Shown: one piece after another, positions 1 to 61,867 of the stretch | How positions within the stretch are numbered: position 1 is the first letter of the stretch | Layout: each line of letters starts with the position of its first letter | IMG/VR virus record: IMGVR_UViG_3300045988_069456 | Strand: one strand, 5' to 3' | DNA: 61,867 nucleotides | From: a virus | Notes under the pieces: model-generated | Databases searched by the model: none | What the model was told of the DNA's origin: nothing | What the model saw: the letters and a program-made list of their open reading frames with translations, nothing else | Program-made: the position numbers and the translations under genes

Positions 1-769
1 GCATGGGTGCCTGTATTGTTACGCAGCTAAGCAGGCGAACAGATTTTCTGGTAATGTGCTGATCAACAAAACGTCTGAGCAGCTAAGAAAAGAATGGGAC
101 GAAAGAGGAACCCGCTGGGTGTTGGAAAAGCCTTTTAAGAACGAAATCGGAAAAGTGACACCGTTCCCGGTAAAGTTTGAACCTATGTTCCGGGAGTATT
201 GTCTGCCTATGCCAGCGCAGAAAAAGAAACCGGCGATTATATTTGTGGTAAGCATGGGCGACCTGTTCGGGGAGTGGGTACCGGATGAATGGATCCGGAG
301 AGTTTTCGGGGCGGCGCAAGCCGCACCATGGCACACGTATTTGTTTCTGACAAAGAACCCACAGAGATACATACAGCTGGCAGAAGCAGGGAAGCTGCCG
401 CAGCAGAAAAATTTCTGGTATGGCACGACGGTAACAAGACCAGATCAGCAGTATGCCTGGTTCGAGCCTGGCACGTATAACTGGTTTTTAAGCATTGAAC
501 CGATACAGGAGGACTTTACTTTTGACGCATCGTGGGTTATACGGAGTGAAACAAAAGGAACCTATGCGCCACCCTGGATCATCGTCGGAGCTGAGACTGG
601 CCAGCAGAAAAATAAAACGATACCACAGGCAGAATGGGTGCAGCATATCCTTGAATTTTCCCAGGCACACGGTAGCAAGGTATTTTTGAAAAATAACCTG
701 GCCCCTTATTTTACCGGGGAACTGGTGCAGGATTTCCCATTTAGTTATCCCCCTAAGAATTTGGGATAG
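1..769 (+). CDS. DUF5131 / phage Gp37-Gp68 family protein, 3' part (5' part at 61707..61867; about 276 aa when joined)
   Basis: The frame is open from the window start (first full codon at base 2) and is in phase with the ORF starting at 61707. The N-terminal Cys motif [23 protein letters not shown] is typical of this family. Confidence 0.75.
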   Translation, partial: HGCLYCYAAKQANRFSGNVLINKTSEQLRKEWDERGTRWVLEKPFKNEIGKVTPFPVKFEPMFREYCLPMPAQKKKPAIIFVVSMGDLFGEWVPDEWIRRVFGAAQAAPWHTYLFLTKNPQRYIQLAEAGKLPQQKNFWYGTTVTRPDQQYAWFEPGTYNWFLSIEPIQEDFTFDASWVIRSETKGTYAPPWIIVGAETGQQKNKTIPQAEWVQHILEFSQAHGSKVFLKNNLAPYFTGELVQDFPFSYPPKNLG

Positions 770-2138: not shown

Positions 2139-3785
2139 ATGGCAAGAAAGAAGAAAAAAGACGAGGCTGAGAACTATTTCAACAACGTGGCCAACTACCA
2201 GACCGAAGCGGAAGCAAGGGCCGTTACGCCGGAGGGTGTAAAGGTCTTTTGTGCTTTTGACGAGCTGGTACCTATTGGCAAAGTGGTTCCGAACCCTGGA
2301 AACCCAAACACCCATCCACCTAAGCAGGTCGCACTGCTGGCTGCCATTATCAAGGGGCAGGGATGGAGGAAACCTATTACAGTGAGCAAACGCAGCGGCT
2401 TTGTTGTGACCGGTCACGGACGCCTGGAAGCCGCACAGTCCATGCAGGCCAGTGTTGTGCCTGTCGAATACCAGGAATACGCCTCGGAGGCAGAGGAGTA
2501 CGCTGATCTGATGGCAGACAATCGCCTGGCGGAGCTGAGTGAAATGAACACCTCGGCACTGGCAGACATGCTGCAGCAGATGGACACCGGAGAGATACCG
2601 CTGGAAATGAGCGGCTACACAGAGGAGGACCTGGAAGATCTACTCAACGCCCTGGGAGGTGTGGACGATACGGAGAACAACGGAGAGGACACCGTACCGC
2701 CACCGAAAAACATTCCCATGACCCATGCCGGAGATATTTGGCACCTGGGGCAGCACCGCCTGATTTGTGGGGACAGCACCAAGCCAGAAACCCTGCAGAA
2801 GCTGCTGGGGGATGAACTGGCGCAGTGCGTGAACACTGATCCACCGTATGGCATAAGCCTGGATGGTGGCGGAGGAAACGGGAAGAGACAGAAACAGCAG
2901 ATCGAAAACAACGGCATGATCGCCAACGACGAGCTGACCGACGACGACCTCCTCGGCAAACTACTGATTCCGGCATTTAAGAACGCCGTGAAGTACAGCA
3001 AGCCAGATGCTGCATTTTACATTTACCATGCGACCGATACCCGCAGGGACTTTGAGGACGCTATGACAGCCGCAGGCCTGCTGGAAAAGCAATACTTGAT
3101 ATGGTTGAAGAACAACCACAACCTGAGCGGTACCGATTACCTGAGAGACTTCGAGCCTATGTTTTATGCAGAGAAAGCAGGACATACGGCCAAGTGGTGC
3201 GGAGATCGTAGCAACAACACCTGCTGGAAGATAACCCTCCGGGATGATGCAGGCATGGCAACCACCCTGAGCGGTGGCATTGTTGTGACTGACGGAGCAG
3301 GAGGCAAGGCTTTTATTTCTGACAAGGTACCAAAAGGAAAGAAAATCCGGTACCTGAGACTGCAGGAAGATAAAAGCGTTTTCTTATACCCGGAAGATAA
3401 GCAGGGAGCCGTTTGGGAAGTGGCAAGAGATACGGCGACGTTCCACCCGACACAGAAGCCCGTGGAACTGGCCACAAGGGCGATACTGAACAGCTCGGAT
3501 CCGGGAGACATTATCCTGGACCTGTTTGGCGGTTCTGGCTTCACGCTGATCGGCGCGGAAATGACCGAGAGACAGGCCAGGCTGGTAGAGTTAAGCCCAA
3601 CCTATTGTGATGGAATTATTCGGCGGTATGTAAGCTATACCGGCAATGCTGGTGTGACATGCACCAGGGACGGCAAAGAATACGCATACGTGCAGCTGAA
3701 TGAGGAAAATATAAAGGCAAATATGCCGGATCCGGAAGAAACGCCGGAAGCTGCTGAGGACATCAATGTCCCTGGCAAAGAGTAA
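2139..3785 (+). CDS. ParB-like nuclease domain fused to a beta-class DNA methyltransferase
   Basis: The N-terminus has ParB-type motifs (PNPGNPNTHPPKQV, VVTGHGRLEAA). DPPYG (motif IV) precedes FHPTQKP and LDLFGGSGFT (motif I). Confidence 0.85.
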   Translation: MARKKKKDEAENYFNNVANYQTEAEARAVTPEGVKVFCAFDELVPIGKVVPNPGNPNTHPPKQVALLAAIIKGQGWRKPITVSKRSGFVVTGHGRLEAAQSMQASVVPVEYQEYASEAEEYADLMADNRLAELSEMNTSALADMLQQMDTGEIPLEMSGYTEEDLEDLLNALGGVDDTENNGEDTVPPPKNIPMTHAGDIWHLGQHRLICGDSTKPETLQKLLGDELAQCVNTDPPYGISLDGGGGNGKRQKQQIENNGMIANDELTDDDLLGKLLIPAFKNAVKYSKPDAAFYIYHATDTRRDFEDAMTAAGLLEKQYLIWLKNNHNLSGTDYLRDFEPMFYAEKAGHTAKWCGDRSNNTCWKITLRDDAGMATTLSGGIVVTDGAGGKAFISDKVPKGKKIRYLRLQEDKSVFLYPEDKQGAVWEVARDTATFHPTQKPVELATRAILNSSDPGDIILDLFGGSGFTLIGAEMTERQARLVELSPTYCDGIIRRYVSYTGNAGVTCTRDGKEYAYVQLNEENIKANMPDPEETPEAAEDINVPGKE

Positions 3786-6388: not shown

Positions 6389-7827
6389 TGGCAACCACAG
6401 CAGGAGAAATCGGCCGCATAGGGCAAAAGCGCTATGGCGGCTTTTTTTACGAGGAATTTTTGAAAGAGCTCCAGGGCCGTAAAGGCGTGGAGACATACAG
6501 AGAAATGGCAGACAATGACGACGTGATCGGCGCCATACTGTTTGCCATTGAAATGCTGATCCGGCAGACAAGCTGGACCATACAGCCAGGAGGACCAGAG
6601 AGCGCAGACGAAGAGGCAGCAGAGTTTATTGAGAGCTGCATGGACGACATGCAGGACACCTGGACAGATACCATTTCGGAAATCTTGTCCTTTTTAACAT
6701 ACGGGTGGAGCTACCACGAAATCGTGTACAAGCGGCGTTGCGGTAAAAACCGGGACAGCCGCCTAAACAGCAAGTATGACGACGGGCTGATCGGATGGGC
6801 TAAGTTGCCTATTAGAGCACAAGAAACCCTTTATCAGTGGGAGTATGACGACAACGACAACCTGACCGGCATGACACAGATGCCGCCGCCAAACTTCGGC
6901 CTGTACACGATACCGATAGAAAAAGCCCTGTTGTTCCGGACAAAGAGCCGGAAGAACAACCCGGAGGGGCGCAGCGTACTGAGGAACGCATACCGGTCCT
7001 GGTACTTCAAGCGCCGCATACAGGAGATTGAGGGAATCGGTATAGAGAGAGATCTGGCAGGCTTCCCGGTGTTGACGGCACCAGAGGGCATGAACATATG
7101 GGACACGGATGATCCTGACATGGTAGCCATCCGTGCAGGTATGGAGGCCATTGTTAAAAATGTGCGTCGAGACAGTACCGAGGGGCTGGCGCTTCCGAAC
7201 GGCTGGCAGTTCCAGCTGTTGAGCACAGGAGGCCGCCGCCAGTTTGATACCAACGCGATCATTGAGAGATATGACACCCGCATGGCAATGACCGTGCTGG
7301 CTGATTTTATTTTCCTGGGACACCAGAGCGTCGGCAGCTTTGCACTGAGTAGCGACAAGACAGAGCTGTTTTCTATGGCAATAGGCGCGTACCTTGATAT
7401 TATTTGTGAGGTTTTTAATAACCAGGCAATCCCACGTCTGATCAACCTGAATGGCGACCACTTCAACAGTATTACAGATTACCCGCGAATGGAGCACGGA
7501 GACATTGAGGACGAGGACATTGAGAAGCTGGCCAACTACATAAAGGAAATGACCGGCGTCGGCATATTAACACCAGACAGCCAGTTAGAGGACTATGTAA
7601 GAGAAGCGGCACACCTGCCTGAGCGCCTGGAAGATGATACACCGGCGGTACCGACACCGGGAGGAGAAAAGCCAGTAAATACGCGGCAGAGGCAGCAGGC
7701 AAAGCCACAACAGCAGCGTAGCAGCACGGTTGCCCCCGGAGGAGGAGAGGAAGATCCTGACGGAGTGACCGAGGAAGATATGCAGGCCGTTGAGGAGGCA
7801 AGGAAGAGACTGGGGAGGGACCCATAA
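6388..7827 (+). CDS. portal protein (Mu gp29/DUF935-like)
   Basis: The GTG start is 8 nt after AAAGGAGGG. About 479 aa, located between terL and the MuF-domain protein. The C-terminal tail is acidic and Gln-rich. Confidence 0.75.
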   Translation: MATTAGEIGRIGQKRYGGFFYEEFLKELQGRKGVETYREMADNDDVIGAILFAIEMLIRQTSWTIQPGGPESADEEAAEFIESCMDDMQDTWTDTISEILSFLTYGWSYHEIVYKRRCGKNRDSRLNSKYDDGLIGWAKLPIRAQETLYQWEYDDNDNLTGMTQMPPPNFGLYTIPIEKALLFRTKSRKNNPEGRSVLRNAYRSWYFKRRIQEIEGIGIERDLAGFPVLTAPEGMNIWDTDDPDMVAIRAGMEAIVKNVRRDSTEGLALPNGWQFQLLSTGGRRQFDTNAIIERYDTRMAMTVLADFIFLGHQSVGSFALSSDKTELFSMAIGAYLDIICEVFNNQAIPRLINLNGDHFNSITDYPRMEHGDIEDEDIEKLANYIKEMTGVGILTPDSQLEDYVREAAHLPERLEDDTPAVPTPGGEKPVNTRQRQQAKPQQQRSSTVAPGGGEEDPDGVTEEDMQAVEEARKRLGRDP

Positions 7828-10800
7828 TGCAATTTAAGAAGATACGGATCCGCAAAGCGACTGGCAAGAAGAAAAGTCAGGGCGGACAAAATGCGCTGAA
7901 CAAGCTGAACAGCTTCCTGAACGCGGCGTCCGCTGAACCGGCATATATTTTGCATAGCACATGGACCAACCAGCAAAATGCGATTACCTACAAGGAAATC
8001 CGCGAGGCTATAATGAACGGCCACATGAGCGAAAGCACTTTCCGACAGTGGCAGCAGGATTATAGCAAGATGGTAAGCGACAAGCTGTCCCCTGTATGGG
8101 TTAAAGCTATGGAAACGGCAAGCCTGGGCGTACAGGAACAGCATGACAGTTTTTTCTTTGATCACACATGGCCAGGGGTAACGAAGTGGGTTCAAGAGCA
8201 CGGCGCGGAGTTTGTGACGAACATAAGCGCTGAGCAAAAGAACGCAGTGAGCGCCCTGATCGCCAGAGCATACAGCAAGGGAGAGAGTGCGGAGGAGTTA
8301 TCCAGGGCAATACGCCCGTGCATAGGCCTGACACAGCGCCAGGCTATTGCAAACGCGAACTATTACGATCATGTGAAAGATTCCTTGCTAAAGAATAATC
8401 CAGGCATGAAAGAGGCCACAGCGGCCAAGAAAGCCCAGGAAGCAGCGGCCAAGTATGCAGCGCAACAGCACCGGTACCGTGCTAACATGATAGCGGAGAC
8501 AGAAATGGCGTTTGCATATCAGCACGGCGAGTATGAAGCAGTAAAGATGGCCCAGGCACAGGGCCTTATGGGCGTTGTGGAAAAGGTATGGTCAACAGCT
8601 TATGACGACGGCGTTTGCGATATCTGCAACGGGCTAGAGGGGCAGACGATAGGCATAGACGACAATTTTAATTTTAAGCTGAATAAATTACTTTTTGGAG
8701 GGCAAAGGCTGACACCACCGGCACATCCGCAGTGCAGGTGTGCGGTTGAGTATAGGGAGATTTCCCCGCCGGTAATACAGCCGGCACAGAGCCAGACACC
8801 GGGGCCAAGTATACCGGATCCGGCAACACCGTCCGTCCCTGGCAGCTTGCAAATGCCGCAGGGAATGAAAGACAAAGGTCTGGCGCACCTGGGAGGTACC
8901 GGAGAAATGCACTTGTGCGAGGACGGCAGCGGCACGGAATGGCTTTTCAAACCGGCGCAGTCCAAAAGCGGCACACCGGAAGAGTTCCGGGCCTATGTGC
9001 AGGAAGCTGGTTACAAGGTGCAGGGTATTGTGGATCCGGACACGGCCGTCAAGGTCGGCACCGGAAACATAGGCGGCCAGTTTGGCGCATACCAGCAGAA
9101 AATTGACGTGGACCCGAACGGGTTCGACTTCAAAGCCTGGCAGCAGTACGGCACCAAAGGCCTGACGGCTGACCAGGTGCAACAGATACAGCGGGAACAT
9201 GTTACAGACTGGCTGCTGGGGAACTATGACAGCCACGGCGGCAATTTTGTAACAGATACCAGCGGACGGCTGATCGGCGTAGACAAAGAACAGTCTTTCC
9301 GGTACATTACCGACAAGGCCAGCCAGAAAATGACATACGCATACCACCCCAACAGCAAGTATGGCGAAACAGAACCGCTGTACAACACTGTTTTTCGGAA
9401 GTATGCCAACAATGAGCTGGACCTAAACCCGCAGGACACCCTGGCATATATAAAACGGGTTGAGGCAATACCTGACAAGGAATACAGAGAGATATTCCGT
9501 GGCTATGCCGAAAGCCTGAAAGGCAAGGGAAAAGACGCGGAGCAGCTGCTGGACGCCATTGTGGAGCGCAAGCAGAACCTCCGGGAAACGTACCGGACAT
9601 TTTACACGGACCTGTTGACCCAGCGAACCGGTAAAAAACAGGCAGCTTTTGTGTGGGCGGACGAAGCACAGAACACGGCCAAGACCATCCAGGCGGCAAC
9701 GCATGACGTGGCAGCCCTGAAAAAGATGGGAAAAGCAGATCTGCTGCAGATGGCCAAGGCACAAAACATTGCCTATTGCAATAACATGAACAAACAGCAG
9801 CTCATTGATAGCTTGTCCGACCCGGTAAAGGCCAAACAGTGCAGCAAGGATGTACGGGACAGACTGGCGGCCAACCAGGCGGCCAGAAATGCCAAGACGA
9901 CACCGAAAGCACCGGCAGCAACCAATACAGGGCACTTGCCTCCAGGAACCAAAACGGCCGAGGATGTATTTACAGATTTTGACAAGATACACCCAGGGCC
10001 AAAGCAGGGGCAGGCAGTATGGAGCGACGCGGACAAGGTTGAGGGCATGAACCTGAGTGCCCGCCGTATGATCATAGACGGAGACGTGCACTATGAGATT
10101 ACTGGCAAGCTGAGGTCAAGCGCCTGGGATGATGTACTGCAGAGGATGGACGGAGCAAACCCAACCGTGCCGGCACAGCGTATCAATATGAGTTTTGAAA
10201 CCACAGCTCCGACAGCAAGGGCATGGACAAGCAACACATTAGTTGAAACCCAGGCAAACATACACGGGGTTGTTACCTACCTGGATTCTTATGACCAAAA
10301 GTATGCATCTTTTGAGCTGTACAGTGGGAAGCAACAAGGCCTGCATTCCTGGGACGGTTATTTTAGAATCCGTGTCCGGAGCAGCGGGGATGGCGTAGCA
10401 GATGCCAAGAAAGCTGCAGAGCTGCTGAAAAAGGTAGGACTGGACGAAGTGACCAGGACGCCGACAGCAGCCGCAGAGGAAACCCTGAAAAAGGCAAGGC
10501 TTGTGTGGTCACAAGCACCTAACCGCGTGGACGAACTAAGGAATCTGGCAGGCAGCAGCCTGGTAAAGAAACTGGATGAAATAATCATCCAGGAAAATAT
10601 AAACGTTGTGCAGCTAGCTAGCATGAAGCTGCAGAGCGAATACAACGGCTATATAACCTATGTTGTGCCTGGGCTTGCAAAGGATCTGGAAAAGGCTGGC
10701 GCAAAATATGTATACCACAGTGTTTCCAGAGAGGGCGACGTTATAAAGATTTTGCAAAGCGGCGGAATTTCTTCGACCATGAGCAGAATCAAGCAGGGCA

Positions 10801-11252
10801 TACAGAACCCAGCCGGCGCCAGTATGTACTCCGACATGAGAACCGGAGGAGCTGACAGTGCATTTACCAGAGTGGCAACAGGACAGGCGCAGCGGATGAA
10901 AAAGAAATTTTCCGGTGCTAGTGTTTATGGAGATTACCAGATAAAAATGAGCACGGAAGTCCTGGAACGCACAGATTACTATGCTTTTGAATGGGATAGA
11001 TTTGGCGAGGTTGCGGACATAAGCCAATACGGAAAAAGTCCCATGCAATTTGTTAAGGACATGGAAAGCGGCTTCCAGGGAAGCAACGAAATCATGTTCC
11101 GAAACGGGATAGATAGCAGATATTTTACAGAAATTATGTGCAACAGCCGACAAGAGCGGCAGCACCTGTTGAGCGAACTTCACGCGCAGGGTATAATGGA
11201 CATAAACGGTATTGATATCGAAAAATTTATAACCGTAGGGAGTGGATTGTAA
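7827..11252 (+). CDS. polyvalent virion protein: MuF/SPP1 gp7 head-morphogenesis domain plus kinase-like, Rho_N/SAP-like and ART-like domains
   Basis: The MuF signature CDICNGLEGQ...PPAHPQCRCAV lies at aa 264-306. The kinase-like catalytic loop NYDSHGGNF and GVDKEQSF lie at aa 466-491. LKKMGKADLLQMAKAQNIAYCNNMNKQQLIDSL lies at aa 631-663. The C-terminus has candidate H-Y-E positions (VYHSVS, GASMYSD, SNEIMF). Confidence 0.8.
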   Translation: MQFKKIRIRKATGKKKSQGGQNALNKLNSFLNAASAEPAYILHSTWTNQQNAITYKEIREAIMNGHMSESTFRQWQQDYSKMVSDKLSPVWVKAMETASLGVQEQHDSFFFDHTWPGVTKWVQEHGAEFVTNISAEQKNAVSALIARAYSKGESAEELSRAIRPCIGLTQRQAIANANYYDHVKDSLLKNNPGMKEATAAKKAQEAAAKYAAQQHRYRANMIAETEMAFAYQHGEYEAVKMAQAQGLMGVVEKVWSTAYDDGVCDICNGLEGQTIGIDDNFNFKLNKLLFGGQRLTPPAHPQCRCAVEYREISPPVIQPAQSQTPGPSIPDPATPSVPGSLQMPQGMKDKGLAHLGGTGEMHLCEDGSGTEWLFKPAQSKSGTPEEFRAYVQEAGYKVQGIVDPDTAVKVGTGNIGGQFGAYQQKIDVDPNGFDFKAWQQYGTKGLTADQVQQIQREHVTDWLLGNYDSHGGNFVTDTSGRLIGVDKEQSFRYITDKASQKMTYAYHPNSKYGETEPLYNTVFRKYANNELDLNPQDTLAYIKRVEAIPDKEYREIFRGYAESLKGKGKDAEQLLDAIVERKQNLRETYRTFYTDLLTQRTGKKQAAFVWADEAQNTAKTIQAATHDVAALKKMGKADLLQMAKAQNIAYCNNMNKQQLIDSLSDPVKAKQCSKDVRDRLAANQAARNAKTTPKAPAATNTGHLPPGTKTAEDVFTDFDKIHPGPKQGQAVWSDADKVEGMNLSARRMIIDGDVHYEITGKLRSSAWDDVLQRMDGANPTVPAQRINMSFETTAPTARAWTSNTLVETQANIHGVVTYLDSYDQKYASFELYSGKQQGLHSWDGYFRIRVRSSGDGVADAKKAAELLKKVGLDEVTRTPTAAAEETLKKARLVWSQAPNRVDELRNLAGSSLVKKLDEIIIQENINVVQLASMKLQSEYNGYITYVVPGLAKDLEKAGAKYVYHSVSREGDVIKILQSGGISSTMSRIKQGIQNPAGASMYSDMRTGGADSAFTRVATGQAQRMKKKFSGASVYGDYQIKMSTEVLERTDYYAFEWDRFGEVADISQYGKSPMQFVKDMESGFQGSNEIMFRNGIDSRYFTEIMCNSRQERQHLLSELHAQGIMDINGIDIEKFITVGSGL

Positions 11253-31144: not shown

Positions 31145-31672
31145 ATGTATGGTATGACACCATGGAAAGACGAGGTTGTCCAGTACCCATACCGGTACAA
31201 AGAGACGCAGAACTCTGACGGCACAGTAGAACATGAGCCGTCCCCAGGTACCGTGATGCAGCAGGGAACCCCACAGAGTGCAACCAATTTCAACCACATG
31301 GAAAATGGAATCCATGACGCCCATGTGGCAGAGGCTATTTTCATGCAGGCAAAAATGCACCATCAGGAGGAAGTTGAGCGCCGCCTGGGAGAGCATGACG
31401 CAGAGTTTACGTCTGAAACCGGAACGGTTACGCTGACCAACAGCAACAAGGTATTTTTTGCTTTTAACAACAGCGGCACAACGGTTGCTTTGAAAACCGT
31501 CCGCAAAACTATGAACTATGACCTTGATATTGAGGTCGTGGAAGTAGCAGGCGGCCAGGTTGGGGATGTGATCGTATATGACAAGCAGCTGAACGGCTTC
31601 AAACTGAAATTCGAGGGAAGCGCTAAGACCGTAAAGGTTAAATACAAAGTTAGAGGAGGTATGTACGCATGA
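31145..31672 (+). CDS. tail fibre-like protein (XkdV-like N-terminus)
   Basis: The motif QQGTPQSATNFNHMENGIHDAH resembles the GTP-x-NA-x-NLN-x-ME-x-GI motif of Firmicutes prophage tail fibres. Confidence 0.5.
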   Translation: MYGMTPWKDEVVQYPYRYKETQNSDGTVEHEPSPGTVMQQGTPQSATNFNHMENGIHDAHVAEAIFMQAKMHHQEEVERRLGEHDAEFTSETGTVTLTNSNKVFFAFNNSGTTVALKTVRKTMNYDLDIEVVEVAGGQVGDVIVYDKQLNGFKLKFEGSAKTVKVKYKVRGGMYA

Positions 31673-32028: not shown

Positions 32029-33120
32029 ATGCAGTACGATTTAGCAGAATTTGCCCTGAAAATGGTAGCACCTAACAACAAGCTGATTTATGACGACAAG
32101 GGGATCCCGTCCGTTATGGTTTACGTGCCTAAGTTTAAAATGAGCGACGTGATCGACGGCGCCGGAGACAGCACGCACCCAGCCTTTATCGTGAATGGTA
32201 AAGAGGTACCGGGAATCTGGATCAGCAAATACCAGAACATTGTAAACAATGGCCGTGCGTACTCCCTGCCTGGCCAGGATCCAACTGTAAACATTACCTG
32301 GGACACTGCCAGAGGATATTGTGAATCCAAGGGAAAAGGCTGGCACATGATGACTAAGGCAGAGTGGGCCGCAATTATGCTCTGGTGCAAAAAGAACGGT
32401 TTCCAGCCATGGGGAAACAATAACTATGGCAAGGACAGCAGAGAGACGCTGCAGCAGGCTATTCCGGCGACCTATGGATCCGACGGAAAAATCAACCATG
32501 TGCTGACTGGTACCGGCCCGCTGACCTGGTCCCACAATAAACAGCTTGATGGAATTTGGGACCTGAACGGAAATGTTTCTGAGTGGACAGGCGCACTCCG
32601 TACTGTAAAAGGAGAGCTGCAGTTACTTGAAAACAACAACGGCGCCAACAGCGACAATCCGCAGACAGCAACAAGTACCGCATGGAAAGCCATTGACGCA
32701 ACCACCGGCGCATTTATTACGCCAGACGGAAACGGAACAACCGAGAACAGTATTAAAATTGATGCAGCAGGAACCGGCGGCGCCCAGTGGTGCAAAACTA
32801 TTACAAAGACATCTGAGAGCTTTAGCTGTCTGCTGGGTTCCATGACCTGTTCCGCAGACATTTCCGACGCTGCAAAGGCAGTGTTGAGAGCATACGGTTT
32901 GCTGCCAGTAGATGGAGCAAAACCAGCTGATTATGACGACGACAGATTGTACTTTAACAATGTGGCGGATGAGCGCTTGTTCAACTCCGGTGGCTACTAC
33001 ATCGGCGGCGGCGCGTACGCGGGTGTCGGTTACGGTAGCGGCTGGACGAACCGTGGCAACGTGTACGTGATCATCGGCTGGCGCTCCGCTTATGTGGATC
33101 TGGAATCTGTTGGCCTGTAA
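32029..33120 (+). CDS. DGR target protein, FGE-sulfatase / C-type-lectin-fold receptor-binding candidate
   Basis: 363 aa. Motifs GKGWHMMTKAEWAAIMLWC and GIWDLNGNVSEWTG. The C-terminal 40 codons form the VR. Confidence 0.85.
   Translation: MQYDLAEFALKMVAPNNKLIYDDKGIPSVMVYVPKFKMSDVIDGAGDSTHPAFIVNGKEVPGIWISKYQNIVNNGRAYSLPGQDPTVNITWDTARGYCESKGKGWHMMTKAEWAAIMLWCKKNGFQPWGNNNYGKDSRETLQQAIPATYGSDGKINHVLTGTGPLTWSHNKQLDGIWDLNGNVSEWTGALRTVKGELQLLENNNGANSDNPQTATSTAWKAIDATTGAFITPDGNGTTENSIKIDAAGTGGAQWCKTITKTSESFSCLLGSMTCSADISDAAKAVLRAYGLLPVDGAKPADYDDDRLYFNNVADERLFNSGGYYIGGGAYAGVGYGSGWTNRGNVYVIIGWRSAYVDLESVGL
32972..33090 (+). repeat. DGR variable repeat (VR), 119 nt
   Basis: It aligns to the TR at 33567-33688. 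All 10 substitutions lie at TR adenines, and one codon is missing. Confidence 0.9.
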
Positions 33121-33173
33121 TCTGATAGGGACGCGATAGCGGACCGATAAGGCCAACTAGATGCAGGAGGAAC

Positions 33174-33545
33174 ATGGAAGAGGTACAGATTGAAAATCGG
33201 GATGGGGACAGAGATCCCCTCCTGATTTTAGGAAAAATTGAAGATATGATGTTATACGCCTATCCGGTACTAAATGCGTACCCGAAGTATGAAAGATTTG
33301 TTTTAGCGGCAGACATAAAGCGGTGTATGGACCAGGCAATGGAAAGAACCATTGAAGCGAATAAAAAGTATTACAAGAAAACCACTTTGCAGGAGCTGGA
33401 CGTGGAAATTGACAAGCTGAGAAAATACGTTCGCCTTTCATACCGGCTGAAATATATTGATTTCAAGAAATATAAGCAGTGGAGCGAACAGGTAAACGAG
33501 ATAGGCAGAATGCTCGGCGGATGGATGGCGAGCGTTAAAAAATAA
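33174..33545 (+). CDS. avd: accessory variability determinant (Avd)
   Basis: 123 aa and helical. The C-terminal IGRMLGGWMASVKK is typical of Avd / 23S-IVS four-helix-bundle proteins. It lies between the VR and the TR. Confidence 0.8.
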   Translation: MEEVQIENRDGDRDPLLILGKIEDMMLYAYPVLNAYPKYERFVLAADIKRCMDQAMERTIEANKKYYKKTTLQELDVEIDKLRKYVRLSYRLKYIDFKKYKQWSEQVNEIGRMLGGWMASVKK

Positions 33546-33566
33546 ATAACGTAGGGAATGGGATAT

Positions 33567-33688
33567 AGCGCTTGTTCAACTCCGGTGGCAACTACAACGG
33601 CAACGGCACGAACGCGGGTGTCGGTTACAGTAACGGCAACTGGACGAACCGTGGCAACGTGAACGTGAACATCGGCTGGCGCTCCGCT
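33567..33688 (+). repeat. DGR template repeat (TR), 122 nt, non-coding
   Basis: It carries 29 adenines and 11 in-phase AAC triplets. It starts 21 nt after the avd stop. Confidence 0.9.
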
Positions 33689-33905
33689 CTACCCCCATAC
33701 GCCAGATACAGGAGCGCCCACGGACGCCCTGGCAGTGCAGGGGGATAAAGGATCTCGTTCCCACGCTTTACAATGAGCGAAAAAGGAAAACAGCAGTGAT
33801 GGCACCAAGGGGAGTCCCTTGTGCGTGGGTTATGTTTTGCAAAAGCAGAGCCGCTGGCCCATCCGGAAGTAGAATACAGCGAAACCTGCACCACTGTAAA
33901 AAAAT

Positions 33906-35063
33906 ATGACAATTAGAAACGTATATTATGAGATAACCTCATTTCACACACTAATGGTCGCAGATACCCATGTATCAAAAGGCAAAAGGGAGAACACAGA
34001 AAGGCTGAGATTTTACGACAATAGAGAGGGAAACCTGGAAGAAATAAGCACTCTGTTGAGGGCTGGAAAGGTACCAAAAGTCGAATATCACAGCTTTTAT
34101 GTATACGTGCCAAAGGTGCGGAAAGTTATATTTATTGACTACTGGTCCAAAGTGGTACAGCGGGCAATATATGACGTGCTGAATCCTAAAATATGCCGGA
34201 CGTTCATAGAACATACCTATGCGTGCGTAAAGGGACGCGGGCAGCTGGCAGCCATGGAACAGCTTTATACCTGGATGCGAGAAACCAGGACGTCCGGAAC
34301 CGAATGGTATTATTACAAGTTTGATGTTACAAAATTCTTTTACCGCATTGACCATGAAATACTTATGGATATTTGCAGGAAAAAGATAGATGATCCGCGA
34401 ACCGTTGACTTGTTGGGGTATTACATAAACAATGATGCGGTTCCGTTCGGTATGCCATTGGATGCAAACCAGCTGACAATTACCGAGGAGCAAATGCTGT
34501 ATGATTTAGGAATACCTATCGGCGGCGGCCTGTCCCATATGCTGGGTAATATGTATCTGGATCCACTTGACCAGTTTTGCAAGAGGGTACTGGGAATAAA
34601 ACGGTATATCCGGTACATGGACGACATTATAATCCTGGACAATGACAAGGAACGCCTGAAAGAATACGGCAGAAGAATGACACAGTTTTTAGAGGAGCGG
34701 CTGCACTTAAATTTCAACAACAAGACAGCGCTCCGGCCGGTGCGGGTTGGTTGTGAGTTTGTTGGTTTTGTTATTTATAACGACCATGTAATCCTGAGAA
34801 AAAGCACAACGCTTCGGATGAAGAGAACTCTCCGGAAAACGCGCCAGGACTACCACGACAACCTGATCACATTCAAGGAGGCAAACGCAACCATGCAGAG
34901 CTACCTGGCCATGCTGAGCCATGTGGATTGTAAGAAATTTAAGGAGAAATTGCTGGACGAATTTGTATTGACCCATGCGGATGATAATGGAGAGGAGCAG
35001 ATCATAAACGTGATTGAAACGGGAGGAATAGGAGCACTTGATTATGAAACAATGTATTGCTGA
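33906..35063 (+). CDS. DGR reverse transcriptase
   Basis: 385 aa. YMDD is at aa 237-240, and motif 4 reads IGGGLSH at aa 205-211. It is adjacent to the TR. Confidence 0.9.
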   Translation: MTIRNVYYEITSFHTLMVADTHVSKGKRENTERLRFYDNREGNLEEISTLLRAGKVPKVEYHSFYVYVPKVRKVIFIDYWSKVVQRAIYDVLNPKICRTFIEHTYACVKGRGQLAAMEQLYTWMRETRTSGTEWYYYKFDVTKFFYRIDHEILMDICRKKIDDPRTVDLLGYYINNDAVPFGMPLDANQLTITEEQMLYDLGIPIGGGLSHMLGNMYLDPLDQFCKRVLGIKRYIRYMDDIIILDNDKERLKEYGRRMTQFLEERLHLNFNNKTALRPVRVGCEFVGFVIYNDHVILRKSTTLRMKRTLRKTRQDYHDNLITFKEANATMQSYLAMLSHVDCKKFKEKLLDEFVLTHADDNGEEQIINVIETGGIGALDYETMYC

Positions 35064-35214
35064 GGTACTGGAAACCCAGTCGGAAATTATACAGCTGCAA
35101 AGGAATGTTATTGACCGCCTGGCGGCCGCATTATTGCAGCACAGTATGATTGAAGAGGAAGAACTGGCAATGATGCAGCAGGCGGCAGACCTGCAAAGAG
35201 GCATAGAAGAATGA
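35044..35214 (+). CDS. hypothetical 56-aa coiled-coil-like protein
   Basis: The ATG overlaps the last 20 nt of the RT gene. Sequence: MKQCIAEVLETQSEIIQLQRNVIDRLAAALLQHSMIEEEELAMMQQAADLQRGIEE. It is below the ORF-track cutoff. Confidence 0.3.
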   Translation: MKQCIAEVLETQSEIIQLQRNVIDRLAAALLQHSMIEEEELAMMQQAADLQRGIEE

Positions 35215-35238
35215 AACCCATAAAAAGAATTGACCGCA

Positions 35239-35267
35239 GAGCTGGCCCTGGCCAGTTCTTTTATTTT
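35239..35267 (+). terminator. rho-independent terminator closing the DGR cassette
   Basis: The stem is gagctgg / ccagttc (one G-U pair) and is followed by ttttatttt. Confidence 0.55.
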
Positions 35268-35299
35268 ACAAAAAACGAGGCGGAAAGGAATACAAAAAA

Positions 35300-39760: not shown

Positions 39761-40717
39761 ATGACGAATTTAGCAAACAAAATCGGCGGCGCATTATTTG
39801 GTGTAGCAGTAGGGGACGCACTGGGCGCCCCGCTGGAATTTATGAACGCAAAGGAAATCCAGCACAAGCACGGAACCGTGAAAGAAATGATCGGTGGCGG
39901 ATGGCTGAACGTAAAGCCGGGAGAAGTTACCGACGACACGCAAATGACGATCGCAGCAGCCCTGGGCGTAGCAATGCACCCGGATAATCCGGAGCCGTGG
40001 GCGGGCAAGCACTTTGCAGAGTGGGCCATGGGTGGCCCGAAAGATATCGGCGGCACCTGCCGCAGTGCGATCACAAACGCCCTGCAGATGATGCTGAGAC
40101 GGCCAGATCTGAAAGACTGCAAGGGCCTGGCGCCATATGAGCTATGGGAACAGGCAGCACAGTTGACAGCCCAGCAGAACGGCAACAGAAGCGCAGGCAA
40201 TGGCGCCCTGATGCGTACCGTGTACCCTGGCCTGTACTATACAGACGAAAGCAGAGCCGTAGAGGTTGCGGACAGAATCGGACGCCTGACACACTGGGAC
40301 GACCTGAGTGCGGAGGCTTGCCAGCTTTATACAAAAATGATATACTATTTAATCATGCACCATGCAGACCCGGTGCAAAAACTATGCAACGGGCTGAATG
40401 ACATAACCAGGGGCACACGGTACAGCCGCAAAGCTGAACCTGCAAAGCTGAACCCCAGCGGTTTTGTGGTTGACTCACTGCATTGTGCGCTGCACTGCCT
40501 GAGAAGAACAAAGAACTTTGAGGCGGCCGTAGTGATGGCAGCAAACATGGGCGGAGACGCTGACACCATAGCAGCCATTACAGGAGGGCTGGCAGGAGCC
40601 TTGTATGGATATGAGAGAATCCCGCTCCGGTGGCGTATGCTACTGGATAGCGACACCAAGAGCACACTGATCAGCCTGACAGGAGACGCAGCAAGGAACC
40701 ATGGAGGCAATAAGTAA
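39761..40717 (+). CDS. ADP-ribosylglycohydrolase (DraG/ARH family)
   Basis: N-terminal motif GALFGVAVGDALGAPLEF and C-terminal motif ANMGGDADTIAAITGGLAGALYGYERIP, both hallmarks of the family. Confidence 0.85.
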   Translation: MTNLANKIGGALFGVAVGDALGAPLEFMNAKEIQHKHGTVKEMIGGGWLNVKPGEVTDDTQMTIAAALGVAMHPDNPEPWAGKHFAEWAMGGPKDIGGTCRSAITNALQMMLRRPDLKDCKGLAPYELWEQAAQLTAQQNGNRSAGNGALMRTVYPGLYYTDESRAVEVADRIGRLTHWDDLSAEACQLYTKMIYYLIMHHADPVQKLCNGLNDITRGTRYSRKAEPAKLNPSGFVVDSLHCALHCLRRTKNFEAAVVMAANMGGDADTIAAITGGLAGALYGYERIPLRWRMLLDSDTKSTLISLTGDAARNHGGNK

Positions 40718-52102: not shown

Positions 52103-53027
52103 GCCGGACAAGTACAGCATAAGCACCTCGGAAGCCCTGAGAGAGGGGTACAGCGTGCCGGAGCCGGTACCGGAAACAGTAAGCTGCAAGTATTGTGACA
52201 GAAAGCTGGAATATTATGGCCTGGTTAGCCCGGTATCGCCGCGACATGTGATCGTGTGGAAGAGCCGCCCGGAGCGCTGCACATGCAGCAAGGCACAGGA
52301 CTTCTGGAAAGATTGGGACGCAAAGGAAGAGGCCCGCAAGGCAGCTGAGGCAGAACAGAAAGCCAGGGAGGAAGAAATGCAGCGGTTCCGCAGCATGATG
52401 GAGCGCAGCGGCATGAAAGCAAGATTCCAGAACAGACGTTTTGAGAATTTTGTCCAGGACACCCAGGGACGCCGCCAGGCATACACCCAGGCAAAGAAGT
52501 ATGCCGACAACTTCCAGCGTATGCGCCCGGTTAAGAATGATCGCAACCACATAACACCGCCGGAGATTGAGCGCAACGGCCTGTTTATGGCAGGCGGGTA
52601 TGGTACCGGAAAGACCCACCTGGCAGCGGCCATTGCAAACCAGCTGATCAGTGAGGGAACGGCCTGCATCTGCATGACCATGATTGACCTGTTAGACAGG
52701 ATCCGGGAAACATACAAGGCAGCTGGCAGTGACGTAGACGAAGCATACATCCTGAGCCAGTACGAGGATGTGCCGCTCTTGATCATTGACGACATAGGAA
52801 GCGAGCAGCCGACGGAGTGGGGCGTGAGCAAGATATTTGCCATTATAAACGCCAGGTATGAGGGATATATGCCGACGATCATCACAACAAATTACAGCGG
52901 CCCGGAGCTGGTGCAGCGCATGACACCGGAGAGCGGAGACAGCAGGAACGCAGAGAAAACCCTGGACCGCCTGAAAGAGACATGCGTCGGGATTGATATG
53001 ACGTGGGAGAGTTGGAGGGCACGCTGA
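52029..53027 (+). CDS. DnaC/IstB-like AAA+ helicase loader
   Basis: Walker A GGYGTGKTHLAAAI and Walker B LLIIDDIG. The GAGGAGG SD lies inside the upstream gene, with a 74-nt overlap. Confidence 0.8.
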   Translation: MSTATMAAMPQEAIQQGSTQPETTKPDKYSISTSEALREGYSVPEPVPETVSCKYCDRKLEYYGLVSPVSPRHVIVWKSRPERCTCSKAQDFWKDWDAKEEARKAAEAEQKAREEEMQRFRSMMERSGMKARFQNRRFENFVQDTQGRRQAYTQAKKYADNFQRMRPVKNDRNHITPPEIERNGLFMAGGYGTGKTHLAAAIANQLISEGTACICMTMIDLLDRIRETYKAAGSDVDEAYILSQYEDVPLLIIDDIGSEQPTEWGVSKIFAIINARYEGYMPTIITTNYSGPELVQRMTPESGDSRNAEKTLDRLKETCVGIDMTWESWRAR

Positions 53028-53773
53028 TGAACGGACCAACACTATTGTGTGGCGACTGCCTGGAGCTTATGAGCCGGATTCCGGACGGCAGTATTGACAT
53101 GGCGCTGAGTGATTTACCGTATGGCACAACACGCTGCCGGTGGGACACTCCGATCAACCTGCAGGAGTTATGGAAGCAGTACCGGCGAGTGGTAAAGAAA
53201 AACGGCGCCATTGTACTTTTTAGCGCGCAACCTTTTACCACGGAGCTGATCAGCAGCAACAAAGCCATGTACCGCTATGAATGGATATGGAAAAAGACAC
53301 AGCCCAGTGGATTTATGAACGCCAAGAAAATGCCACTGAGGATCCACGAAAACATAGAAATATTTTACCGGAAGCCGCCGACCTATAACCCGCAAATGAC
53401 CCACGGGCACCAGAGAAAGACAGCGACGGCATACGGAACCAGGGAATCGGACGGCAGCAGCTGTTATGGCCGAGAGGAAAGAAACTATACATACGACTCC
53501 ACGGACCGGTATCCGGTGGATGTGCTGCAATACAGCACCGGGGACAAGACCAAGCGCCTACACCCGACGCAGAAGCCCGTAGACCTGCTGGAATATCTGG
53601 TCAAGACCTACACGAACCCAGGAGAGACAGTCCTGGACAACTGCATGGGAGCTGGGAGCACCGGCGTTGCCTGCCTGAATACCGGGCGGGAATTTGTAGG
53701 GATAGAGCTGGATCCGGAATATTACCAGATTGCAAAAGAAAGGATTGAGCAGCATGTGGAAAATATTTTTTGA
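53027..53773 (+). CDS. beta-class DNA methyltransferase (N6-A or N4-C)
   Basis: ATGA-coupled. SDLPYG (motif IV) precedes HPTQKP and VLDNCMGAGSTG (motif I). Confidence 0.85.
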   Translation: MNGPTLLCGDCLELMSRIPDGSIDMALSDLPYGTTRCRWDTPINLQELWKQYRRVVKKNGAIVLFSAQPFTTELISSNKAMYRYEWIWKKTQPSGFMNAKKMPLRIHENIEIFYRKPPTYNPQMTHGHQRKTATAYGTRESDGSSCYGREERNYTYDSTDRYPVDVLQYSTGDKTKRLHPTQKPVDLLEYLVKTYTNPGETVLDNCMGAGSTGVACLNTGREFVGIELDPEYYQIAKERIEQHVENIF

Positions 53774-61706: not shown

Positions 61707-61867
61707 ATGATGAACAAAAGCCTGATTGAATGGTGTGATTTCACATGGAATCCGGTCACTGGTTGCCGGCATGGGTGCCTGTATTGTTACGCAGCTAAGC
61801 AGGCGAACAGATTTTCTGGTAATGTGCTGATCAACAAAACGTCTGAGCAGCTAAGAAAAGAATGGGA
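61707..61867 (+). CDS. DUF5131 / Gp37-Gp68 family protein, 5' part (continues at window base 100 on the circle)
   Basis: ATG lies 9 nt after GAGGAGG. Sequence begins [36 protein letters not shown]. Confidence 0.75.
61769..61867. repeat. 99-bp terminal duplication of window bases 1-99 (circularisation overlap)
   Basis: Direct comparison of the first and last 99 bases. The duplication lies inside a continuous ORF. Confidence 0.9.

Follow-up and report, generated by a model that had tools for sequence, protein, structure and literature searches.

What is a reverse transcriptase (RT) gene doing between the baseplate and lysis genes of a gut phage, and is the machinery around it still rewriting one of the phage's own proteins? 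This question is raised by positions 32029-35063 of the virus record IMGVR_UViG_3300045988_069456 in IMG/VR, all 61,867 nt of which were analyzed here and are called the window. The original prediction, made from the letters of the sequence, was that this segment holds a complete diversity-generating retroelement (DGR). Our results indicate that it is very probably a complete and currently active DGR of the BPP-1/Lagaffe type, placed where the tail module ends in a temperate phage of gut Clostridia with a 61.8-kb genome. A pair of template repeat (TR) and variable repeat (VR), the accessory protein Avd, an RT, and a target protein predicted to have a C-type-lectin (CLec) fold were all present, and the coordinates proposed for the target (32029-33120), VR, Avd, TR and RT were all reproduced from the list of open reading frames (ORFs) and by alignment. 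The parts of the cassette are as follows.

32029-33120, + strand: DGR target (variable protein), 363 aa, with a predicted CLec/formylglycine-generating enzyme (FGE)-type fold over its whole length, containing GIWDLNGNVSEWTG
32972-33090, + strand: VR, 119 nt, the last ~40 residues of the target before its C-terminal tail
33076-33090, + strand: GC-rich 3' end of the VR, GGCTGGCGCTCCGCT, a putative segment of the initiation of mutagenic homing (IMH) type
33174-33545, + strand: Avd accessory protein, 123 aa, with the C-terminal part EIGRMLGGWMASVKK
33567-33688, + strand: TR, 122 nt; 29 adenines, the majority within AAC codons
33906-35063, + strand: DGR RT, 385 aa, with YMDD at residues 237-240

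The repeat pair was delimited with a repeat finder, pairwise alignment and a scripted comparison. In the window, all 10 substitutions between VR and TR fall at TR adenines, an outcome with a chance probability of about 0.24^10, or roughly 6e-7, given that adenines occupy 29 of the 122 TR positions. Read in the frame of the target, the TR adenines stand at codon positions 1 and 2 of AAC-type codons. The VR is 119 nt long against 122 nt for the TR because it has one in-frame 3-nt gap opposite a TR AAC codon. This missing codon is private to the window, the other loci encoding targets of 364-367 aa, and indels opposite AAC have already been described (PMC5758913 Fig. 4C). A search with all TR adenines set to N found only two copies in the window (0 expected); the genome therefore has a single VR, and a remote target is absent. 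Between the VR and the stop codon of the target lie 30 nt. Its last 15 nt, GGCTGGCGCTCCGCT, are common to VR and TR, and the two sequences diverge directly afterwards in the alignment. A GC-rich shared end followed by divergence is typical of IMH and IMH* (PMC5758913), and by this likeness GGCTGGCGCTCCGCT may be an IMH-type segment with a role in directionality. The TR had originally been called non-coding; its position and its length of 122 nt held, but a mechanically called 58-aa ORF (33572-33748) overlaps it and merely mirrors the reading frame of the VR.

The activity of the element was approached by comparing contigs with the same RT between samples, in place of mapping reads within a sample. 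The identical RT protein is indexed in 119 blocks of a public assembly collection; ten of its loci, taken from different samples, were read. In 8 of these ten loci the TR is the same as that of the window, yet all 11 VRs, including that of the window, differ. Counted against the TR of the same locus, 145 of the 148 VR differences in the 11 loci were at TR adenines, and variation was seen at 28 of the 29 TR adenines. The adenine-linked VR heterogeneity anticipated in the original prediction was thus observed between samples carrying the same RT, the scope of our comparison. The pairwise diversity of the single regions, calculated for eight co-linear loci as differences per site, was:

VR opposite TR-A: 0.57
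VR opposite TR-C or TR-G: 0
VR opposite TR-T: 0.04
rest of the target gene: 0.0097
RT gene: 0.003
476 nt between VR and TR: 0

Since the VRs all differ while the surrounding DNA differs by at most 1%, VR turnover has been very recent relative to background divergence, and the VR has been rewritten repeatedly in this lineage.

Several relatives also document from where the VR receives its sequence. A near-identical prophage in Ruminococcus sp. AF41-9 (L011) has an RT 99% identical to that of the window, and all 17 of its VR-TR differences are at adenines. The TRs of this locus and of L009 are 119-nt variants (TR ~3665-3783, VR ~3070-3188) that lack a codon and carry other changes off adenines, and the VR of each locus reproduces its variant. 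In L007, whose RT is identical, the 5' part of the TR (3662-3783) carries five A-to-N changes at positions 12, 13, 24, 30 and 36; its VR (3064-3185) mirrors all five, with further differences at the remaining adenines only. These matches between the TR variants of L009, L011 and L007 and the VRs of the same loci directly demonstrate information flow from TR to VR. AAC-codon indels recur in the lineage, in the TRs of L009 and L011 and in the VR of the window. The TR of L007 seems to have been overwritten once, via leaky directionality or VR-to-TR conversion, and an assembly chimera is unlikely at this locus. An exact 96-nt TR pattern had no match in IMG/VR, whereas the protein-guided search found close relatives differing in TR or VR. 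A locus from a metagenome-assembled genome of Oscillospiraceae (L012:3058-3794, RT 67% identical) has the same gene order, but 5 of its 14 VR-TR mismatches are off adenines and it carries a 3-nt indel. It looks like a decaying or drifting, possibly inactive copy, and was left out of the evidence for activity.

Avd and the RT were assigned by family and structure-database searches. Avd matched the NCBIfam equivalog DivGenRetAVD with 120.8 bits (cut-off 80), Pfam bAvd with an E-value of 1e-30, and the PDB entries 4dwl and 8ub7_B. The earlier claim on the position and identity of this gene was borne out, but IGRMLGGWM, given as its end, is followed by five more residues. The 385-aa RT with its YMDD motif was found where it had been predicted, and it matched Pfam RVT_1. 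Its best PDB match, in two matched stretches, was 8ub7_A, the BPP-1 RT (bRT) in the bRT-Avd-RNA complex, at an E-value of 4e-33; the next matches, to retron-type and group II RTs, were at 1e-14 or worse. The RT lies below all NCBIfam cut-offs for group II, retron and Drt RTs (TIGR04416, 93 vs. 300 bits; Drt3a, 61 vs. 200; Retron St85, 44 vs. 235). The SQ motif of DGRs (motif 4) is present in 121 of the 133 full-length representative RTs nearest to it in a library of 1.8 billion proteins. These sequence comparisons support its placement in the DGR RT clade, with bRT and not with the retron or group II RTs as nearest relative, as the original prediction required.

These results also bear on a plainer explanation, under which point mutation and selection drive apart the two copies of an ordinary duplication, next to an unrelated RT of the retron, group II or defence kind. 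The weak matches to group II, Drt3a and retron models could be taken in its favour. However, they are far under the cut-offs, bRT is the best solved relative by 19 orders of magnitude in E-value, Avd is present, and differences that fall at TR adenines in 145 of 148 cases beside an invariant TR do not fit point mutation with selection. We consider this explanation already refuted and give it practically no probability.

The RT of the window departs from the DGR signature in one respect. Its motif 4 reads IGGGLSH, where that of bRT reads IGSLTSQ, and the signature (I/V/L)GxxxSQ is not matched: IG is kept and Q is changed to H. IGGG(L/M)SH is invariant in the RT subclade of the window, down to ~45% identity, and ~45 IMG/VR loci of the SH type all have the order target-avd-TR-RT and A-biased mismatches. 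In the BPP-1 ribonucleoprotein (RNP), Q187 of bRT contacts the base of the incoming deoxynucleoside triphosphate (dNTP) (bioRxiv 10.1101/2023.10.23.563531). SH was reported among the 15 of 155 DGR RTs in which the last two motif residues deviate and adenine exchanges are still present (PMC3521204, Schillinger et al. 2012). As SH is on record as a rare variant of DGRs that look functional (PMC3521204), it was not taken as disqualifying. An altered mutation spectrum in the SH lineage was considered and rejected, the A-to-G/T/C proportions of the SH loci (55/29/16%) being close to those of their SQ neighbours (45/36/19%). The SH motif is a lineage marker without visible consequence, and not a new mechanism.

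The target protein had been described as 363 aa long with an FGE-sulfatase/C-type-lectin signature, and this description proved accurate. It contains GIWDLNGNVSEWTG and matched Pfam FGE-sulfatase at 8e-10 and phrog_2889 at an E-value of 6e-111; a weak similarity to the PHROG 'tail protein' family phrog_5302 was found at 4e-11. Its best sequence match in the PDB was 5vf4 (TaqVP), at an E-value of 2e-45 and 30% identity. An AlphaFold2 model built from 52 homologues reached a pLDDT of 92.2 and a pTM of 0.93, and its sole dip in confidence, at residues 321-330 (mean pLDDT 64), lies within the VR. Foldseek matched the whole model to 5vf4 with TM-scores of 0.88/0.84; the next matches were PvdO, Treponema TvpA, FGEs and BPP-1 Mtd. 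The structure predicted for the target is thus the CLec/FGE-type fold of DGR variable proteins, in agreement with the fold originally proposed. In clustering at 90% identity, one cluster of the target has 5840 distinct member sequences, while the largest cluster of a neighbouring 175-aa protein has 814 (P0005, P0271); this excess is consistent with hypervariation of the target.

What the variable protein does for the phage was judged from its surroundings. The Xkd/Mu-type tail and baseplate genes are followed by three small ORFs, then by the DGR, and then by lysis genes (holin-like ORFs and an endolysin). The original prediction placed the target directly after baseplate and fibre genes. The baseplate part holds, but none of the upstream genes is annotated as a fibre, and the only fibre-like ORF is so by its predicted fold alone:

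31145-31672, + strand: short fibre-like protein, 175 aa, outside the DGR and two genes upstream of the target

This protein belongs to phrog_9010, of unknown function. In its AlphaFold2 model (pLDDT 84), a beta region at the N-terminus is followed by a helix of 43 residues and a beta-sandwich at the C-terminus. Foldseek matched it to a 'putative tail fiber protein' of BFVD at an E-value of 2.7e-6, and to tailspike, H-type lectin and pyocin-fibre knob domains in the PDB at E-values of 0.01-0.4. For the three small ORFs that precede the target, searches of PDB sequences gave no significant match.

By analogy, the target most likely acts in host recognition. Its gene position, its fold and the parallel with BPP-1 and Lagaffe point to a tail-located receptor-binding protein that would set the host range. 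The DGR might instead be active on a protein that does not determine host range, such as a decoration or adhesion protein for mucus, glycans or non-host surfaces, or one with a function in the lysogen. The target is nearly all one CLec domain, with ~18 N-terminal residues left for attachment; the fibre-like protein two genes upstream has a lectin-like knob of its own; and Hoc-like decoration proteins are DGR targets in other gut phages (PMC5883640), all of which would suit such a function. On the other hand, the slot between baseplate and lysis genes, which this gene occupies, is the one that holds the fibre genes of myoviruses; the phage genome has no further long fibre gene; the fold is common to Mtd; and the layout of Lagaffe is identical. 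A function unrelated to host range is therefore unlikely in our view, and host recognition is the role that we prefer.

If the cassette works as in BPP-1, the RNA around the TR should be folded in a comparable manner. The TR-to-RT spacer of ~20 related loci was aligned with MAFFT and compared with the elements of the BPP-1 RNP, in which an Avd-binding stem-loop is enclosed by the template:primer duplex and accompanied by an 11-bp avd:Sp duplex named 'cPRT Stop', a short stem-loop with A-minor adenosines, and a bRT-binding element (bioRxiv 10.1101/2023.10.23.563531). The corresponding features of the window are as follows.

33554-33564, + strand: upstream strand of the stop duplex, GGGAATGGGAT, 2 nt before the TR
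33692-33744, + strand: stem-loop directly 3' of the TR, with a covarying hairpin within 33701-33735
33746-33751, + strand: UAAAGG, almost invariant, separating the stem-loop from the stop strand, in conserved columns of alignments A4 and A5
33752-33762, + strand: downstream strand of the stop duplex, AUCUCGUUCCC, pairing 11/11 with 33554-33564
33764-33791, + strand: predicted short hairpin (33764-33779), then an A-rich run (33780-33791)
33791-33896, + strand: long interrupted stem-loop ending just before the RT start codon, with folds judged by eye

The stop duplex was found at the homologous position in every relative: in 23 of 23 loci the best complement to the upstream stop motif stands there, with 9-11 of 11 pairs. 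In a 19-sequence alignment, 92.8% of the cells are paired and 9 of the 11 pairs show compensatory changes, whereas slid controls reach 35-53% paired and none of 500 shuffles attains the observed values. For the hairpin at 33701-33735, RNAalifold gave compensatory changes in 8 of 9 pairs, and alignment A5 gave them in 7 of 9; here, too, the shuffles and slid controls stay below the observed value. A helix (CCCCC 33692-33696 with GGGGG 33740-33744), seen by eye in each locus viewed and in varying register, encloses this hairpin. From the layout of the BPP-1 RNP, this stem-loop is a candidate for the Avd-binding element with an enclosing helix of the template:primer type, and the UAAAGG motif a candidate for the region of the priming nucleotide. 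For 18 of 23 loci, folding the first 30 nt at minimum free energy yielded a hairpin of 4-6 bp, with differing stem sequences, and then an A-run, the order also present in the BPP-1 cPRT Stop; a longer-range fold won in the remaining 5, and the same local hairpin is still readable in several of these. In the long stem-loop, the internal motifs CCG..AGUAG and CGAAAYC are conserved, and the closing helix, judged by eye, differs in sequence and is kept in most loci. By the same comparison, it is a candidate for the RT-binding element. RNAalifold recovered only the first hairpin from the full spacer alignment, and the remaining helices therefore had to be entered manually; as the MAFFT registers differ between loci, the long stem-loop and the outer helix were assessed by eye. 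Rfam holds no family for these TR-flanking RNA elements.

Taken together with the BPP-1 model, the following course of events may be proposed. A transcript would cover the TR together with the 3' end of avd on one side and the 217-nt spacer on the other. It would then fold into the Avd-binding stem-loop, a helix returning the spacer to the 3' end of the TR, the 11-bp duplex of the TR-flanking sequences, the hairpin with its A-run, and the long RT-binding stem-loop. RT and Avd would copy the TR into complementary DNA (cDNA), with misincorporation opposite adenines only, and this cDNA would take the place of the VR in the 3'-terminal part of the target, with the GC-rich IMH-type end and the inverted repeat behind the VR directing the exchange. 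As a result, up to 16 codons could be recoded on the ligand-binding face of a protein with a C-type-lectin fold. In this proposal priming would occur in cis, and the exact priming nucleotide and the roles given to the IMH-type end and the hairpin are presumed.

The inverted repeat lies downstream of the VR.

33110-33158, + strand: inverted repeat after the VR, with 8-bp arms GTTGGCCT (33110-33117) and AGGCCAAC (33151-33158); z-score of the DNA fold, -2.4

The arms enclose CGC-GATA-GCG (33132-33141), a degenerate copy of a hairpin that is conserved in the family. In most relatives, it has a GC-rich stem of 8-11 bp and a GATA-type tetraloop and lies ~43-45 nt after the VR, with compensatory changes in 8 of 9 pairs; the hairpins of the relatives are the best pick per locus, so that their percentage of paired cells is inflated. 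A GC-rich inverted repeat after the VR is found in only about a third of DGRs. The weak hairpin was also seen in L017, and the loci of the window's lineage share it because they have zero differences in the flanking DNA between VR and TR. The lineage with the weak hairpin is thus the same as that in which VR turnover was demonstrated. Between the VR and the hairpin, at 33097-33126, tandem CTG(T/G)AATCTG motifs are kept in relatives even beyond the stop codon; in the window the first TAA of these motifs reads GAA, which makes the target ORF six codons longer (ESVGL).

The decayed hairpin might indicate that the DGR was recently frozen in this genome, with its parts intact, homing stopped and the diversity between samples left by past activity. 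A stem of 3 bp instead of the 8-11 bp of the relatives, VR and TR of unequal length, and a comparison made between samples would all be compatible with such an arrest. However, every ORF is intact, L017 and the loci of the window's lineage share the weak hairpin and yet all their VRs differ in surroundings at most 1% different, and homing would simply overwrite the VR deletion. A frozen element is therefore very unlikely, and we retain the reading of an active DGR.

Some points weigh against an active DGR with a host-range-setting target and should be considered with it. Activity in this particular genome is deduced from relatives with the same RT. The hairpin downstream of the VR is down to 3 contiguous base pairs in the window, and the canonical SQ is SH here, the replaced Q being the residue that contacts the incoming dNTP in bRT. 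The loss of the VR codon may be an assembly artefact of a mixed VR population. A promoter scan gave no convincing promoter for the TR RNA. In addition, the location of the target in the virion and its binding to a receptor are suggested by analogy, and the placement of the VR residues on the ligand-binding face is presumed.

The genome around the cassette agrees with a complete temperate phage. Window positions 1-99 and 61769-61867 are identical, and these 99-nt ends indicate a circularly assembled, complete phage genome of 61,768 bp. Its GC content is 49.7%. No tRNAs were found in the window, and Rfam gave no match over the whole window at gathering thresholds. The packaging and head genes code for a terminase, a portal, a Mu-F-like protein and a capsid protein. 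They are accompanied by the Xkd/Mu-type contractile tail (sheath, tube, XkdN-like protein, a tape measure of 1751 aa, and a LysM protein) and by baseplate genes (baseplate wedge, Baseplate_J, gp48-like). The integrase is on the opposite strand, with replication genes after it. The phage is a temperate, contractile-tailed myovirus, and its host a Gram-positive bacterium of the gut Clostridia. Downstream of the cassette, one further feature was recorded.

35238-35269, + strand: terminator-like hairpin with a T-run, 3' of the RT and of a 58-aa ORF

It is probably the 3' end of the transcription unit. The 58-aa ORF (35038-35214, +) overlaps the 3' end of the RT gene, was called as a gene in 10 of 10 related contigs, and has no family match; the stem-loop part of the terminator-like element behind it spans 35238-35259. 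Elsewhere in the window, a 1141-aa protein (7827-11252, +) has its Mu-F-like head-morphogenesis domain confined to the first ~310 residues, the remaining ~800 giving only a weak Rho_N match. Between the lysis module and the integrase lies a gene for an ADP-ribosylglycohydrolase (39761-40717, +; Pfam 8e-64), possibly a moron or counter-defence gene. Two N6/N4 DNA methyltransferases are encoded at 2139-3785 (+) and 53003-53773 (+), the former fused to a ParB-like N-terminal domain.

Gut phages are well known to carry DGRs of this architecture, and the SH motif, decayed hairpin, AAC indels and one apparently rewritten TR are details of the lineage. The finding leaves our knowledge of how DGRs work unchanged. 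Tentatively, and with more doubt than confidence, the lineage could be seen as departing from the BPP-1 model in three ways: the Q of SQ is fixed as H, the cruciform hairpin has decayed to 3 bp despite very frequent homing, and the TR is occasionally rewritten (L007) or its AAC indels are passed to the VR (L009, L011). If this is true, the BPP-1 rules would not be universal, SQ and the long GC hairpin would be dispensable, and transfer from TR to VR would not be strictly one-way; the TR-flanking RNA would be a curatable RNA family absent from Rfam. A clean, complete and naturally active DGR here joins the few that are tied to a cultured host, and because a near-identical prophage resides in Ruminococcus sp. 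AF41-9, host-range switching in an abundant phage of gut Clostridia becomes experimentally approachable. The natural VR variants, together with the RNA and DNA elements defined by covariation, provide constraints for engineering and annotating DGRs of this lineage.

In a Megablast search with the cassette, GenBank phages gave no nucleotide-level match. The nearest deposited phages were Faecalibacterium phage Lagaffe (target 50% and RT 34% identical), Dulem virus 37 and Bacillus phage BalMu-1, and Lagaffe is the closest cultured relative. Like the phage of the window, FP_Lagaffe (MG711461) is a temperate phage of gut Clostridia, and its modules stand in the identical order: a baseplate J gene, an I/gp48-like gene, three small ORFs, an FGE-family target of ~365 aa, Avd, RT and lysis genes. 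Variability of its VR has been reported at the read level (Cornuault et al. 2018, PMC5883640). It differs in having a genome of 48 kb, compared with 61.8 kb here, and Faecalibacterium as host in place of Ruminococcus sp. In sequence and in structure, the target is best matched by TaqVP of Thermus aquaticus (PDB 5VF4), at 30% identity. Compared with the SH variants reported previously (PMC3521204), SH is here fixed in an entire phage-borne subclade with VR turnover at the population level.

The similarity to the DGR of Bordetella phage BPP-1 extends to most parts of the system. As pointed out in the original prediction, the gene order is that of target (mtd)-avd-TR-RT (brt), and Lagaffe shares it. 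An Avd homologue is present, bRT is the nearest relative of the RT, mutagenesis is restricted to adenines, the VR is at the 3' end of a protein of predicted CLec fold, and the repeat has a GC-rich end that may be of the IMH type. The RNA layout is also alike, with a stem-loop after the TR, an 11-bp duplex between flank and spacer, a hairpin with an A-run, and a long stem-loop. However, the two RTs are distant by sequence, with SQ in motif 4 of BPP-1 and SH in that of the window, and the spacer is 217 nt long against ~140 nt in BPP-1. The target is a single TaqVP-like CLec domain that lacks the N-terminal trimerisation domains of Mtd (Foldseek TM-score to Mtd ~0.3). Unlike BPP-1, the phage of the window is a myovirus of a Gram-positive host, and the hairpin after its VR is degenerate.

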